Shown here piece after piece: positions 119 to 63,491 of a stretch of DNA of 64,000 nt. The notes below the pieces were generated by a model that ran no database searches, was not told where the DNA came from, and saw nothing but the letters and a program-made list of their open reading frames with translations. A program made the position numbers and the translations under genes. The stretch lies in the NCBI RefSeq assembly GCF_002854065.1, contig NZ_CP024147.1; one strand, 5' to 3'. Each line of letters opens with the position of its first letter. Position 1 is the first letter of the stretch. This stretch comes from Escherichia coli. GTDB taxonomy: Bacteria; Pseudomonadota; Gammaproteobacteria; Enterobacterales; Enterobacteriaceae.

Positions 119-238
119 ATGCCTGGCAGTTCCCTACTCTCGCATGGGGAGACCCCACACTACCATCGGCGCTACGGCGTTTCACTTCTGAGTTCGGCAT
201 GGGGTCAGGTGGGACCACCGCGCTACGGCCGCCAGGCA
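119..238 (-). rRNA. rrfG: 5S ribosomal RNA
   Basis: Reverse complement matches the E. coli 5S sequence as I recall it (tgcctggcggc...ctgccaggcat), 120 nt. Confidence 0.95.
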
Positions 239-330
239 AATTCTGTTTTATCAGACCGCTTCTGCGTTCTGATTTAATCTGTATCAGGCTGAAAATCTTC
301 TCTCATCCGCCAAAACAGCTTCGGCGTTGT

Positions 331-3233
<2,903 letters not shown>

Positions 3234-3426
3234 TCACAACCCGAAGATGTTTCTTGCGACTCATCATCGTGTTGCGAAAATTTGAGAGACTCACGAACAA
3301 CTTTCGTTGTTCAGTGTTTCAATTTTCAGCTTGATCCAGATTTTTAAAGAGCAAATATCTCAAACATCACCCGAAGATGAGTTTTGAGATATTAAGGTCG
3401 GCGACTTTCACTCACAAACCAGCAAG

Positions 3427-3502
3427 TGGCGTCCCCTAGGGGATTCGAACCCCTGTTACCGCCGTGAAAGGGCGGTGTCCTGGGCCTCTAGACGAAGGGG
3501 AC
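3427..3502 (-). tRNA. gltW: tRNA-Glu in the 16S-23S spacer
   Basis: Reverse complement gtccccttcgtctagaggcccaggacaccgccctttcacggcggtaacaggggttcgaatcccctaggggacgcca; position in spacer of the clpB-proximal rrn operon. Confidence 0.95.
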
Positions 3503-3587
3503 GTATCAGTCTGCTTCGCAAGACGCCTTGCTTTTCACTTTCTATCAGACAATCTGTGTGAGCACTGCAAAGAACGCTTCTTTAAGG

Positions 3588-5129
<1,542 letters not shown>

Positions 5130-29454: not shown

Positions 29455-29817
29455 GGGGCTGATTCTGGATTCGACGGGATTTGCGAAACCCAAGGTGCAT
29501 GCCGAGGGGCGGTTGGCCTCGTAAAAAGCCGCAAAAAATAGTCGCAAACGACGAAAACTACGCTTTAGCAGCTTAATAACCTGCTTAGAGCCCTCTCTCC
29601 CTAGCCTCCGCTCTTAGGACGGGGATCAAGAGAGGTCAAACCCAAAAGAGATCGCGTGGAAGCCCTGCCTGGGGTTGAAGCGTTAAAACTTAATCAGGCT
29701 AGTTTGTTAGTGGCGTGTCCGTCCGCAGCTGGCAAGCGAATGTAAAGACTGACTAAGCATGTAGTACCGAGGATGTAGGAATTTCGGACGCGGGTTCAAC
29801 TCCCGCCAGCTCCACCA
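29455..29817 (+). ncRNA. ssrA: tmRNA (transfer-messenger RNA)
   Basis: ggggctgattctggattcgacggg ... gcgggttcaactcccgccagctccacca; internal tag reading frame gcaaacgacgaaaactacgctttagcagcttaa (ANDENYALAA-stop). Confidence 0.95.
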
Positions 29818-39084: not shown

Positions 39085-39352
39085 CCCCCATGCCGGAGGC
39101 GACGCTGCGCGTCTTGTCCGGCCTACGAGAGTGTAGGTCGGATAAGGCGTTTACGCCGCATCCGACAATCGGCGCACCCTGCCGGAGGCGATGCTTACGC
39201 GTCTTGTCCGGCCTACGGAAATGTAGATCGGATAAGGCGTTTACGCCGCATCCGACATTCGGCGCATCCATGCCGGAGGCGACGCTGCGCGTCTTGTCCG
39301 GCCTACGAGAGTGTAGGTCGGATAAGGCGTTTACGCCGCATCCTACAATCTG
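39085..39352. repeat. Three tandem REP/BIME units (about 90-bp period)
   Basis: gccggaggcgacgctgcgcgtcttgtccggcctac...taggtcggataaggcgtttacgccgcatccgaca occurs three times with small differences. Confidence 0.85.
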
Positions 39353-55340: not shown

Positions 55341-55425
<85 letters not shown>

Positions 55426-59830: not shown

Positions 59831-61369
59831 ATGCAACAGCAAAAACCGCTGGAAGGCGCGCAACTGGTCATTATGACGATTGCGCTGTCACTAGCGACAT
59901 TCATGCAGGTGCTGGACTCCACCATTGCTAACGTGGCGATCCCCACTATCGCCGGGAATCTGGGCTCATCGCTCAGCCAGGGAACGTGGGTAATCACTTC
60001 TTTCGGGGTGGCGAATGCCATCTCGATCCCGCTTACCGGCTGGCTGGCAAAGCGCGTCGGGGAAGTGAAACTGTTCCTCTGGTCCACCATCGCCTTTGCT
60101 ATTGCGTCGTGGGCGTGTGGTGTCTCCAGCAGCCTAAATATGCTGATCTTCTTCCGCGTGATTCAGGGGATTGTCGCCGGGCCGTTGATCCCGCTTTCGC
60201 AAAGTCTATTGCTGAATAACTACCCGCCAGCCAAACGCTCAATCGCGCTGGCGTTGTGGTCGATGACGGTGATTGTCGCGCCAATTTGCGGCCCGATCCT
60301 CGGCGGCTATATCAGTGATAATTATCACTGGGGCTGGATATTCTTCATCAACGTGCCGATTGGCGTGGCGGTGGTGTTGATGACATTGCAGACGCTGCGC
60401 GGACGCGAAACCCGCACCGAACGGCGGCGGATTGATGCCGTGGGGCTGGCACTGCTGGTTATTGGTATCGGCAGCCTGCAGATTATGCTCGACCGCGGTA
60501 AAGAGCTGGACTGGTTTTCATCACAGGAAATTATCATCCTTACCGTGGTGGCGGTGGTGGCTATCTGCTTCCTGATTGTCTGGGAGCTGACCGACGATAA
60601 CCCGATAGTCGATCTGTCGTTGTTTAAGTCGCGCAACTTCACCATCGGCTGCTTGTGTATCAGCCTCGCGTATATGCTCTACTTCGGCGCTATTGTTCTG
60701 CTGCCGCAGTTGTTGCAGGAGGTCTACGGTTACACGGCAACGTGGGCAGGTCTGGCCTCTGCGCCGGTAGGGATTATTCCGGTGATCCTGTCGCCGATTA
60801 TCGGCCGCTTCGCGCATAAACTGGATATGCGGCGGCTGGTAACCTTCAGCTTTATTATGTATGCCGTCTGCTTCTACTGGCGTGCCTATACCTTTGAACC
60901 GGGCATGGATTTTGGCGCGTCGGCCTGGCCGCAGTTTATCCAGGGCTTCGCTGTGGCCTGCTTCTTTATGCCGCTGACCACCATTACGCTGTCTGGTTTG
61001 CCACCGGAACGACTGGCGGCGGCATCGAGTCTCTCCAACTTTACGCGTACGCTGGCGGGGTCTATCGGCACGTCGATAACCACAACCATGTGGACCAACC
61101 GCGAGTCGATGCACCATGCGCAGTTAACCGAGTCGGTAAACCCGTTCAACCCGAATGCCCAGGCGATGTACAGTCAACTGGAAGGGCTTGGGATGACGCA
61201 ACAGCAGGCCTCCGGCTGGATTGCCCAGCAGATCACTAACCAGGGGCTGATTATTTCCGCCAATGAGATCTTCTGGATGTCAGCCGGGATATTCCTCGTC
61301 CTGCTGGGGCTGGTGTGGTTTGCTAAACCGCCATTTGGCGCAGGTGGCGGCGGAGGCGGTGCGCACTAA
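59831..61369 (+). CDS. emrB: Multidrug efflux MFS transporter EmrB
   Basis: Start moved to MQQQKPLEGAQLVIMTIALSLATFMQV (512 aa); 14-TM MFS. Confidence 0.93.
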   Translation: MQQQKPLEGAQLVIMTIALSLATFMQVLDSTIANVAIPTIAGNLGSSLSQGTWVITSFGVANAISIPLTGWLAKRVGEVKLFLWSTIAFAIASWACGVSSSLNMLIFFRVIQGIVAGPLIPLSQSLLLNNYPPAKRSIALALWSMTVIVAPICGPILGGYISDNYHWGWIFFINVPIGVAVVLMTLQTLRGRETRTERRRIDAVGLALLVIGIGSLQIMLDRGKELDWFSSQEIIILTVVAVVAICFLIVWELTDDNPIVDLSLFKSRNFTIGCLCISLAYMLYFGAIVLLPQLLQEVYGYTATWAGLASAPVGIIPVILSPIIGRFAHKLDMRRLVTFSFIMYAVCFYWRAYTFEPGMDFGASAWPQFIQGFAVACFFMPLTTITLSGLPPERLAAASSLSNFTRTLAGSIGTSITTTMWTNRESMHHAQLTESVNPFNPNAQAMYSQLEGLGMTQQQASGWIAQQITNQGLIISANEIFWMSAGIFLVLLGLVWFAKPPFGAGGGGGGAH

Positions 61370-61377
61370 GGTTGTCA

Positions 61378-61404
61378 AAGGGAGCTTCGGCTCCCTTTTT
61401 ATTT
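61378..61404 (+). terminator. emrB intrinsic terminator
   Basis: gggagc-ttcg-gctccc followed by tttttattt. Confidence 0.75.
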
Positions 61405-61626
61405 GCTCATTGTGCAAACGGTTGTTTTATCCACTCATTCGGTGTATCTTTTCGCCGCCCCAAACTCTTCCATTCACTATTAACCGGTTCTGAGCATTCG
61501 CTCAGGTTGTTAATTCTCTTTTTCCTTCGCCCTCGCTTTCGCGGGTGATACTCACATTTTCCGTTTAACCCCATAACTCGCACCCTCGCGGGCGTACGTT
61601 TATTACACACAAAATAATGGATTATT

Positions 61627-62334
61627 ATGAATACCCAACTTAAATACGGGAGAACCTGGCATTATCCTTTCTCCCCCGGCACCACCAGCGATGACCGCAT
61701 TAACGCCGATTACTGGCAGGATTTACAGGCCATCGCGCAACTGGTGCATACAGAAAAACTCGACGGCGAAAATAACTGCCTTAACCGCTACGGTGTGTTT
61801 GCCCGTTCCCATGCCGCGCCTACGCAGTCGGCATGGACCTATAAAATTCGCCAGCGTTGGCAACTGCTGAAAAACGATCTCGGCGACCTGGAGTTGTTTG
61901 GCGAAAATCTCTACGCCGTTCATTCCATTGAATACCGCGCGCTGGAACAGGACTTTTACCTGTTTGCCGTTCGCTGCCAGGATATGTGGCTGAGCTGGGA
62001 AGAGGTGCAGTTTTACGCCGCCCTGTTTGATTTCCCCTGCGTTCCCGAAATCTCCGGCCCGCAGCCGGGGAATGATGAAAAAAGCTGGCAACGTGATTTT
62101 CTGGCACTGACCAATGCGCGCGGCGCGTTCGATCCCTGGGATACACAAACCGGGCAACCCTGTACTCTGGAAGGCATTGTCAGCCGGAATCGTGATGCGT
62201 TTTCCGTCGCTGACTTTTCGCATAACGTCTTCAAGTATGTGCGCAAAAATCATGTCAAAACCACTGTGCACTGGAAACGACACTGGCAACGGGCGCGGAT
62301 GGCCCATGAGTTCGCTTATGGAGAACAGTCATGA
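61627..62334 (+). CDS. Putative ATP-dependent polynucleotide ligase (minimal covalent nucleotidyltransferase)
   Basis: 235-aa ORF with candidate nucleotidyltransferase motifs: [35 protein letters not shown]; ATG start; 4-nt ATGA overlap with the next gene. Confidence 0.7.
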
Positions 62335-63443
62335 TTTGGCAGCTTACCGACGATAAACGCTGGTCGACACTACGCCAGCGTTTCAGTTGGGTTGAGGAGA
62401 TGCATCACACGCCACAAGACCCGGAGCATCATGGTGAAGGTGACGTCGGCGTGCATACCGAAATGGTGCTTAACGCCCTTGTTACTCAGCCAGAATTCCA
62501 GCAACTCCCCGCTCAACAGCAGGAAGTTTTATGGGCGGCGGCGTTATTACATGATGTTGAAAAGCGCAGCACTACCGTGCAGGAAAACGGACGTATTCAG
62601 TCGCCGGGCCATGCTCGTCGGGGCGAACTGACGGCCCGGCTGATTTTGTGGCGCGATATCCCAACGCCGTTCGTGCTGCGCGAGCAAATCGTTGCGCTGG
62701 TGCGTCTGCATGGGTTACCGCTATGGTTACTGGAACGTCCGGAACCGGAGCGTTTGTTGCTCACGGCTGCAATGCGCATCGACACGCGTCTGCTCACTTT
62801 GCTTGCTCGTGCCGATCTGCTTGGTCGCCAAAGCCCGGATCAGCAATCAATGCTGGAACGCATCGATCTGTTCGAGCTGTTTTGCCAGGAGCAACAGTGT
62901 TGGGGAAAAGTGCGCTCGTTCGTGTCTGATTCCGCACGCTGGCATTACCTGACCCATGAGCAAAGTTCTCCTGATTTTGTTCCCTGGGAGGCTGAACCTT
63001 TTGAGGGCATTTTGCTGTGTGGCTTACCGGGTATGGGCAAAGATCGCTATATCAATGAACAGTGCCAGGGAATGGACGTTATCAGCCTTGATGATATGCG
63101 GCGGCGAATCAATGCCAATCCGGACGACAAAACCGCCACCGGGCGTATTGTGCAACAGGCAAAAGAAGAGGCACGCGTTTTTTTACGCCAGAAAAAGCCG
63201 TTCATCTGGAATGCAACGAACTTTACCCGCCAGCTTCGTAGCCAGCTCATCAGCCTGTTTACGGCTTACGGCGCACGAGTAAAAATAGTTTATCTTGAAG
63301 TGCCATGGGCGCAATGGAAGCAGCAAAATGCCAGACGCGAGTATGCAGTTCCTGAAGCGGTCGTGATGCGGATGGCCTCAAGGCTGGAAGTTCCTCAACC
63401 TGATGAAGCACATAGCGTGGAGTATCGGGTGATTGAAAGGTAA
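62331..63443 (+). CDS. Putative HD-domain phosphoesterase fused to a 5-prime-OH polynucleotide-kinase-like P-loop domain
   Basis: 370-aa ORF: N-terminal HD signature ([10 protein letters not shown] ... LLHDVEK ... D), C-terminal P-loop GLPGMGKD followed by ISLDDMRRR and TRQLR, resembling polynucleotide kinase catalytic motifs. Confidence 0.7.
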
Positions 63444-63448
63444 AAAAA

Positions 63449-63473
63449 CCGGGCGGTGGTGTCACCTGCCCGG
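63449..63473. terminator. Bidirectional terminator between the HD-kinase gene and luxS
   Basis: ccgggcggtg-gtgt-cacctgcccgg with A7 upstream and T-rich downstream. Confidence 0.65.
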
Positions 63474-63491
63474 CTTCTTTTGTTCCACTGA

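Follow-up and report, generated by a model that had tools for sequence, protein, structure and literature searches.

What is the function of the two genes that lie between emrB and luxS in some Escherichia coli chromosomes? In the 64,000 nt of E. coli chromosome analysed here (contig NZ_CP024147.1; this whole stretch is called the window, and all positions are counted within it), the emrB stop codon at 61369 is followed by two open reading frames (ORFs) on the plus strand, and then by luxS on the opposite strand. In an identical strain, RefSeq labels the two products 'RNA ligase family protein' and 'ATP-binding protein', and a literature search found no paper on the ligase and HD-Pnk genes of E. 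coli. A first-pass annotation, made from the letters of the window, had read the two genes as a module for healing and sealing broken nucleic acid ends. The motifs, the folds and the recurrent pairing of the genes described below support that reading, and the genes found beside or fused to their homologues favour RNA over DNA. We therefore regard as rather probable, if well short of certain, a translationally coupled 'heal-and-seal' module whose likely substrates would be tRNA or rRNA cut by transesterifying ribonucleases. The coordinates of all features are collected in Table 1.

The first gene encodes LIG, which matches the Pfam RNA_ligase family (PF09414, E 4.8e-28) over residues 38-205, covering model positions 2-171 of 171. 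A fold search returned a nucleotidyltransferase fold, with RNA ligases as the nearest structures. Motif I of the covalent nucleotidyltransferases is present as KLDGEN, followed by motif III (FGEN, with E93), motif IIIa (FYLFAV), motif IV (EGIVSR) and motif V (FKYVRK). In an alignment of 22 homologues from Enterobacterales and Bacteroidota (60-84% identity), residues K44, D46, G47, E48, N49, E93, E182, G183 and K203 are invariant, as are the N-terminal signature preceding motif I and a basic/aromatic C-terminal tail. Assignment of the gene to the covalent nucleotidyltransferases, proposed from the motifs on first reading, is thus borne out, including the conservation of the motif I lysine.

The LIG domain is flanked by a 37-residue N-terminal peptide and the 30-residue basic/aromatic tail, and by nothing else. 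The fold resembles that of the Rnl2 family (T4 Rnl2, REL1) and the Rnl5 family (Naegleria, Deinococcus DraRnl), but the accessory domain that these enzymes use for nick sealing (C-terminal in Rnl2, N-terminal in Rnl5) is not present in LIG, and an NCBIfam scan of the protein gave no match to a curated family, Rnl2 and DRB0094 included. Because it has no accessory domain, LIG is called here a stand-alone nucleotidyltransferase of the RNA ligase type, and not a member of Rnl2 or Rnl5. A sequence search of the PDB offered mollusc hemocyanins alone (E down to 2e-9); these were rejected as spurious, since the scores are inflated by repeats in a 3,300-aa protein and the per-domain scores are insignificant. 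The hemocyanin matches share a W/F/Y-rich pattern with LIG residues ~79-166, a caution for automated annotation.

The second gene encodes HD-Pnk, a predicted HD phosphoesterase fused to a P-loop kinase domain. In the kinase half, besides Pfam AAA_33 (Table 1), the kinase part alone of the NCBIfam bacter_Pnkp model (TIGR04075) was matched, with E 8.5e-8 over positions 11-137 of 851 and 30.8 bits against a cutoff of 750. A Foldseek search with the structure model (pLDDT 92.7) placed this half with the polynucleotide kinase structures 4gp6 and 4jst (TM 0.71-0.75), as well as with mammalian PNKP and the T4 and Mucorales polynucleotide kinases. In a sequence alignment with 4gp6, K237 falls on the P-loop lysine of Clostridium thermocellum Pnkp, D254 on its catalytic aspartate and R257 on its arginine, and all three are invariant in an alignment of 22 HD-Pnk sequences (53-92% identity).

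The HD half scores poorly in the E. coli protein itself (Pfam HD, E 0.075; HDIG, 0.0034; HD region of CCA-adding enzymes, 7.7e-5). Its assignment rests on the PF01966 matches recorded in many homologues, on the weak NCBIfam matches and on a set of invariant columns in the same 22 sequences, which contain the candidate metal ligands H34, H74-D75, H94, H127 and D162; in the model, this N-terminal half is all-helical. Both parts of the fusion proposed in the first-pass annotation therefore stand: the profile and fold searches gave the AAA_33 or Pnk-like and HD results that it had predicted, and H74-D75 and the P-loop lysine are invariant down to 53% identity. What it did not note was a variant P-loop, in which the lysine is followed by aspartate (GKD, not GK[ST]). 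This aspartate is invariant in the Enterobacterales and Bacteroidota homologues.

The two genes share a strand and overlap by 4 nt in a stop/start ATGA, as first read (Table 1). Conservation of the pair was followed in a sample of one genome per species, comprising 80 loci from Enterobacterales and Bacteroidota with HD-Pnk homologues of 48-96% identity; relatives are encoded in at least 545 stretches. In 78 of the 80 loci a ligase homologue lies directly upstream on the same strand, mostly overlapping the HD-Pnk gene or within ~35 nt of it, as expected for genes conserved as a pair. The two exceptions are a locus where ~800 nt of extra DNA separates the genes and a metagenome-assembled genome that retains a ligase fragment alone. 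The genes flanking the pair vary between orders, indicating that the ligase and HD-Pnk genes move together. More distant relatives, found on plasmids and megaplasmids, keep the arrangement less strictly: in Variovorax one small gene stands between the ligase and HD-Pnk genes. A Bacillus cereus relative has the kinase before the ligase, and certain other genomes keep the two genes apart.

By its sequence, the E. coli pair belongs to the LIG/HD-Pnk cassettes that Shuman's laboratory has described in Runella (Munir and Shuman 2017, J Bacteriol 199:e00739-16) and Deinococcus. The first reading had placed an HD-Pnk of Runella slithyformis beside a ligase, and the account of Munir et al. (2018, RNA 24:1144, PMC6097658) indeed has a ligase ORF just upstream whose 3' end overlaps the HD-Pnk ORF, as in E. 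coli. The order and sizes of the domains are also the same. According to that account, Runella HD-Pnk combines 2',3'-phosphoesterase and 5'-OH kinase activities, and the Runella cluster also has Tpt1 and a methyltransferase-HIT gene upstream. E. coli, in contrast, has the bare pair. Identity of the E. coli HD-Pnk to its homologues in Bacteroidota (Cytophagales and others), the phylum that includes Runella, is 48-57%, figures that refer to proteins other than those of Runella itself.

In Deinococcus radiodurans the homologous operon has the same gene order and strand. DR_B0100 (LigB/DdrP) is a LIG homologue (35% identity, E 5e-27) that shares the N-terminal signature KY..H.P.SPG..DDR, and DR_B0098 is a full-length HD-Pnk homologue (29% identity, E 8e-34; BLASTP, residues 5-369 against 14-408). 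The operon differs from the E. coli cassette as follows: a macro-domain gene (DR_B0099, TIGR02452), absent from the E. coli pair, lies between the ligase and HD-Pnk genes; the P-loop is a canonical GSGKS instead of GKD; and the operon is found on a megaplasmid, while the E. coli cassette is chromosomal.

All ORFs within 6 kb of the pair were clustered across the 80 loci. The sole neighbour family recurring across phyla is RtcB, which 19 loci have, in each case on the same strand. A PrfH gene lies between rtcB and the ligase gene in nine of them, giving rtcB-prfH-lig-hdpnk arrays in Serratia, Bacteroides, Dysgonomonas and Prevotella; ten more loci have rtcB near the pair without PrfH. Other layouts are rtcB-lig-hdpnk, lig-hdpnk-rtcB, and rtcB set apart from the pair by other genes. 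Together the RtcB-linked layouts span Serratia, Bacteroidales, Cytophagales and Chitinophagales, and their variety argues that the linkage has been selected repeatedly. In the example loci, the Serratia RtcB and the PrfH proteins exceed the NCBI curated cut-offs. Tpt1 was found in four of the 80 loci (one above the curated cut-off) and RlaP in three (PF10127, 2e-89). A keyword search of papers on rtcB2-prfH did not find this linkage to the pair.

A second line of evidence comes from domain fusions. A search among 1.8 billion cluster representatives found 1,284 relatives of LIG, many of them within long proteins. The 21 long proteins that were scanned carry a ligase domain 30-59% identical to LIG, with the same N-terminal signature; it is joined to an AAA_33 kinase in 12, to a 2H phosphoesterase in seven and to a PTP-SAK phosphatase in four. 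These 'Swiss Army Knife' proteins (2H-SAK PF22547, PTP-SAK PF22784) range from 570 to over 2,300 aa and have one or two copies of the ligase domain. They are single polypeptides and have a 2H or PTP phosphoesterase, as against HD in the E. coli pair. The fusion of the ligase to a kinase and to a cyclic-phosphodiesterase-type domain favours a heal-and-seal RNA pathway. To judge from gene order and domain content, both lines reported here for the first time, the same-strand linkage with RtcB, PrfH, Tpt1 and RlaP and the 'Swiss Army Knife' fusions, favour RNA repair.

In three Bacteroidota loci a soluble AAA+ protein of ~680 aa with an FtsH-like peptidase C-terminus is encoded between rtcB(-prfH) and lig-hdpnk (positions 1451-3490 of L083 and 1616-3673 of L072; also in L055); it may be an additional member of the system, directed at the products of stalled ribosomes or at the toxin. 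In Pragia fontium (7445-8581 in L006/L007) a 378-aa tyrosine-phosphatase-like protein with a faint PTP-SAK match is encoded directly 3' of hd-pnk, and PTP-SAK is also the phosphatase type fused to the ligase in the multidomain proteins.

The combination of a 3' phosphoesterase, a 5'-OH kinase and an ATP-dependent ligase follows the same logic as T4 Pnkp with Rnl1 and the bacterial Pnkp/Hen1 system, and the kinase domains of T4 Pnk and C. thermocellum Pnkp are structural relatives of the E. coli kinase domain. The phosphoesterases differ, being of the HD type in E. coli, a DxDxT acid phosphatase in T4 and a binuclear metallophosphoesterase in bacterial Pnkp. The E. coli pair is not a Pnkp/Hen1 system: the segment has no Hen1-like ORF, and of Pnkp the kinase part alone matches.

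On the preferred reading of RNA healing and sealing, a break would expose two ends, the first carrying a 2',3'-cyclic, 3'- or 2'-phosphate and the second a 5'-OH. The HD domain, acting through the putative metal site H34, H74-D75, H94, H127 and D162, would strip the phosphate from the 3' side to give a 2',3'-OH end, and the P-loop domain would transfer an NTP phosphate to the 5'-OH, using K237 and D254, the latter as general base. LIG, adenylylated on K44, would then convert the 5'-phosphate to AppN and seal it to the 3'-OH. RtcB, by comparison, joins 3'-phosphate or cyclic phosphate ends directly to 5'-OH ends with GTP, whereas LIG would need healed 3'-OH/5'-phosphate ends and ATP; the pair could work alongside direct ligation by RtcB, taking on the ends that this enzyme is unable to join. 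Candidate sources of such breaks are colicin or contact-dependent inhibition (CDI) toxins, toxin-antitoxin RNases and anticodon nucleases. The ATGA overlap would couple translation, with LIG and HD-Pnk made in equal amounts. Since LIG is a nucleotidyltransferase domain with no substrate-binding domain attached, and the Runella ligase was inactive by itself, LIG probably works with a partner that binds the substrate, and HD-Pnk is the obvious candidate.

Several observations weigh against RNA repair by the E. coli pair. In 57 of the 80 loci there is no RNA-repair neighbour within 6 kb, and no RtcB, PrfH or Tpt1 gene adjoins the pair in the window; the rtcB-prfH operon of E. coli is located elsewhere on the chromosome. 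The P-loop of the E. coli kinase has Asp in the place of Ser/Thr, and neither LIG nor HD-Pnk matched a family of the PADLOC defence models at E <= 0.01. In the experiments described in PMC6097658, the Runella ligase formed ligase-AMP and failed to seal any of the DNA or RNA substrates with 3'-OH/5'-PO4 ends that it was offered. Finally, the D. radiodurans operon is described as radiation-induced and DR_B0098 as needed for resistance to ionising radiation (PMC6300522, a review that cites Schmier and Shuman 2018 for the sensitivity of the mutants).

The Deinococcus genetics support the strongest of the alternatives, that the same enzymology is directed at DNA, on single-strand breaks or gaps with 3'-phosphate and 5'-OH ends left by oxidation, radiation, bleomycin-like agents or DNase toxins, with the pair as an accessory to LigA. 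TatD exonuclease genes, which are neighbours of the pair in four of the 80 loci, would fit with this as well. Runella HD-Pnk, moreover, is said to act also on DNA 3'-phosphate ends and on 5'-OH DNA. We nevertheless consider a DNA substrate possible but on the unlikely side. The closest folds of LIG are RNA ligases, and RtcB, PrfH, Tpt1 and RlaP, together with the 2H fusion partner, have RNA-specific functions. The Deinococcus proteins are 29-35% identical to those of E. coli and accompanied by the extra macro-domain gene, so their role need not transfer, and the review summarises DR_B0100 itself as having no autonomous DNA ligase activity (PMC6300522). Neither the RNA lines nor the Deinococcus genetics are decisive for E. 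coli. If the substrate were DNA, E. coli of phylogroup B2 would hold an unrecognised pathway of end cleaning and ligation.

The RNA reading can be taken a step further, to a proposal that we make tentatively and think rather unlikely. RtcB2 together with PrfH rescues and repairs ribosomes cut by colicin E3, as described by Tian et al. (2022, PNAS, PMC9304027), and the RtcB2-PrfH operon resembles LIG/HD-Pnk as an accessory system for repairing RNA breaks, the pair coming directly after rtcB-prfH in nine of the 80 species. LIG/HD-Pnk might be the heal-and-seal arm of this rescue-and-repair system, with the conserved leader described below as a damage-responsive element. A ribotoxin would cut 16S rRNA or tRNA and the cyclic phosphate would be opened or lost, leaving ends that RtcB is unable to join; HD-Pnk would then heal the two ends, and the rRNA would be resealed by the minimal ligase while docked on HD-Pnk. 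Were this so, carriers such as B2 E. coli would gain wider resistance to colicin E3, cloacin and CDI-type rRNases.

Comparison of the emrB-luxS junction across E. coli genomes mapped the presence and the boundaries of the cassette. In K-12 and most E. coli the two genes are 63 bp apart, in keeping with the short gap that the first-pass annotation had described for K-12. Local alignment with cassette-free junctions (K-12, L001; also L091) showed that homology is lost right after the emrB stop (~61371) and regained at ACTGACTA (63486), and that cassette-free strains, K-12 included, have 57 unrelated bases at the site of the segment. The ~2.1 kb proposed earlier as an insert is therefore a variable segment, but its limits are wider than the terminators first taken as its bounds, and both of these lie inside it. 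The terminators themselves were recovered close to where they had been placed. The one following emrB, given as 61378-61404, consists of a hairpin at 61377-61398 plus a T run (-14.8 kcal/mol, z -3.8 against shuffled sequence), and a similar hairpin lies 3' of emrB in Kosakonia and Phytobacter. The other, given as 63449-63473, corresponds to a hairpin that folds on either strand (-19 kcal/mol, z -3.5 on the plus strand; -26 kcal/mol, z -6.9 on the minus strand), and is thus plausibly a bidirectional terminator shared by hd-pnk and luxS.

A survey of 5,426 complete E. coli genomes found the segment in 999 (18%), always on the chromosome, in single copy and at the emrB-luxS site; all remaining genomes show a K-12-type junction. 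UTI89, clone D i14 and O25:H4 ST131 are among the carriers, which include B2 strains. The window is identical to strain 100416 over the region, and its allele is rare, being shared at >= 99% identity by two genomes, while most carriers are ~96% identical. The order emrB-lig-hdpnk is also found in Phytobacter, Kosakonia, an Enterobacter sp. and Superficieibacter, with luxS just downstream in two of these loci. Compared with the window, the proteins of the other Enterobacteriaceae genera are 92-94% (EmrB), 90-94% (LuxS), 81-86% (LIG) and 70-76% (HD-Pnk) identical at the amino acid level. Insertion, as the earlier wording had it, is therefore not established: given this shared order, long residence at the site followed by loss on several occasions is no less likely than a recent insertion. 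The ratio of nonsynonymous to synonymous substitution rates (dN/dS) is 0.037 and 0.148 for the two genes when two E. coli alleles are compared, and 0.03-0.08 in comparisons with other genera, by which measure both genes are under purifying selection.

These distribution data bear on a third explanation, that the cassette is a conflict module, countering a specific toxin or phage-triggered nuclease or carrying out programmed RNA ligation or circularisation, and sits in an accessory island of some lineages. Patchiness in E. coli, where it occurs in 18% of complete genomes, including B2 strains such as UTI89 and ST131, would suit such a role, as would a chromosomal context that varies by order. 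LIG homologues of 32-45% identity are also encoded by jumbo and mega-phages, some with an N-terminal extension, and occur in PHROG families; the phages include uncultured ones of 460-735 kb, Sinorhizobium Phosso, Agrobacterium Atu_ph07 and Caulobacter CcrSC-like phages. However, the phage ligases have no HD-Pnk gene beside them in the three regions inspected, where the neighbours are HNH-like or HTH proteins, and PADLOC, as noted, gave no match. In the window, no mobility genes, repeats or toxin gene adjoin the pair, and several Enterobacteriaceae genera share the locus in stable, syntenic form. We find this explanation improbable. It is more doubtful still, and scarcely credible, that the genes are decaying remnants with a kinase killed by its GKD P-loop: the substitution for GK[ST], the weak Pfam HD score and the lack of the cassette in most E. 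coli are set against dN/dS values of 0.03-0.15 that show both genes to be under strong purifying selection, ORFs that are intact and annotated as coding sequences without a pseudogene label in sampled rows of 998 genomes, a confident HD-Pnk model, and the invariance of the GKD aspartate across two phyla, which makes it a family trait and not a lesion.

With an intact, selected copy at a fixed locus in about one fifth of the complete genomes, E. coli is the best place to learn the role of LIG/HD-Pnk; uropathogenic and ST131 lineages are among the carriers, and there are near-isogenic strains without the cassette. The linkage elsewhere to RtcB, PrfH, Tpt1 and RlaP provides a testable hypothesis, the repair of translation RNAs cut by ribotoxins, and suggests that certain strains own two chemically different routes for sealing RNA. 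The remainder of the window contains ordinary E. coli features, among them proVWX, nrdEF and emrRAB in addition to those in Table 1.

Table 1. Positions of the features discussed, in window coordinates unless another locus or accession is named.
Feature	Position	Strand	Details
Variable segment relative to K-12-type strains	61371-63485		~2.1 kb; local alignment with cassette-free junction
emrB intrinsic terminator	61377-61404	+	Hairpin plus T run; terminator scan
Conserved non-coding block	61415-61524	+	Alignment of seven loci from six Enterobacteriaceae genera; nhmmer profile match
Candidate sigma-70 promoter	~61426-61454	+	TTGTTT-17 nt-TATCTT; predicted transcription start near 61457
Leader hairpin	61489-61506	+	CTGAGC-loop-GCTCAG; stem kept, loop varies; fold z -3.6
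LIG	61627-62334	+	235 aa; predicted ATP-dependent ligase, nucleotidyltransferase domain alone
LIG motif I	61756-61773	+	KLDGEN (K44); read from sequence
ATGA stop/start overlap	62331-62334	+	Read from sequence
HD-Pnk	62331-63443	+	370 aa
HD phosphoesterase domain (predicted)	62331-62960	+	N-terminal, residues ~1-210
HD dipeptide	62550-62555	+	H74-D75; read from sequence
P-loop kinase domain	62994-63443	+	C-terminal 150 residues; Pfam AAA_33, 2.2e-31
P-loop	63021-63044	+	GLPGMGKD, residues 231-238
GC-rich hairpin between A run and T run	~63447-63478	both	Fold and terminator scan
rrn operon	121-5129		Ordinary E. coli feature
tmRNA	29455-29817		Ordinary E. coli feature
naRNA4 (REP-type) elements, n = 3	39136-39303 and 55342-55419		Above Rfam gathering scores
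rtcB-prfH-lig-hdpnk arrays in other species	L013 (3486-7116), L014, L018, L027, L033, L047, L053, L064, L083	same strand	Surveyed loci
LIG homologues in phages	LR756502.1 485615-486241; PV764938.1 69871-70500; NC_048048.2 275559-276638; MF403008.1		

Upstream of the ligase gene, a block of ~110 nt is conserved far above its surroundings in six Enterobacteriaceae genera, and contains a candidate promoter and a hairpin (Table 1). A GC-rich near-palindrome at ~61583-61596, ~30 nt 5' of the start codon, is partly conserved. An Rfam scan of the segment gave a sub-threshold snoRNA match alone and no family for the leader, a search for a leader peptide ORF in the E. coli 5' region found none, and a search with the leader profile gave no match beyond the Enterobacteriaceae loci used to build it. 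The sequences upstream of the pair in Serratia, Xenorhabdus, Providencia and Pragia differ from the Enterobacteriaceae leader. Its conservation suggests that the leader may control the operon. Two species of Serratia share a conserved 16-codon ORF (MNYQALFTLCRSYPQA) upstream of rtcB (~3335-3385 in L013 and ~3390-3440 in L014). It has a strong ribosome-binding site, AAGGAGG, and could encode a leader peptide that senses translation and so controls the repair operon.

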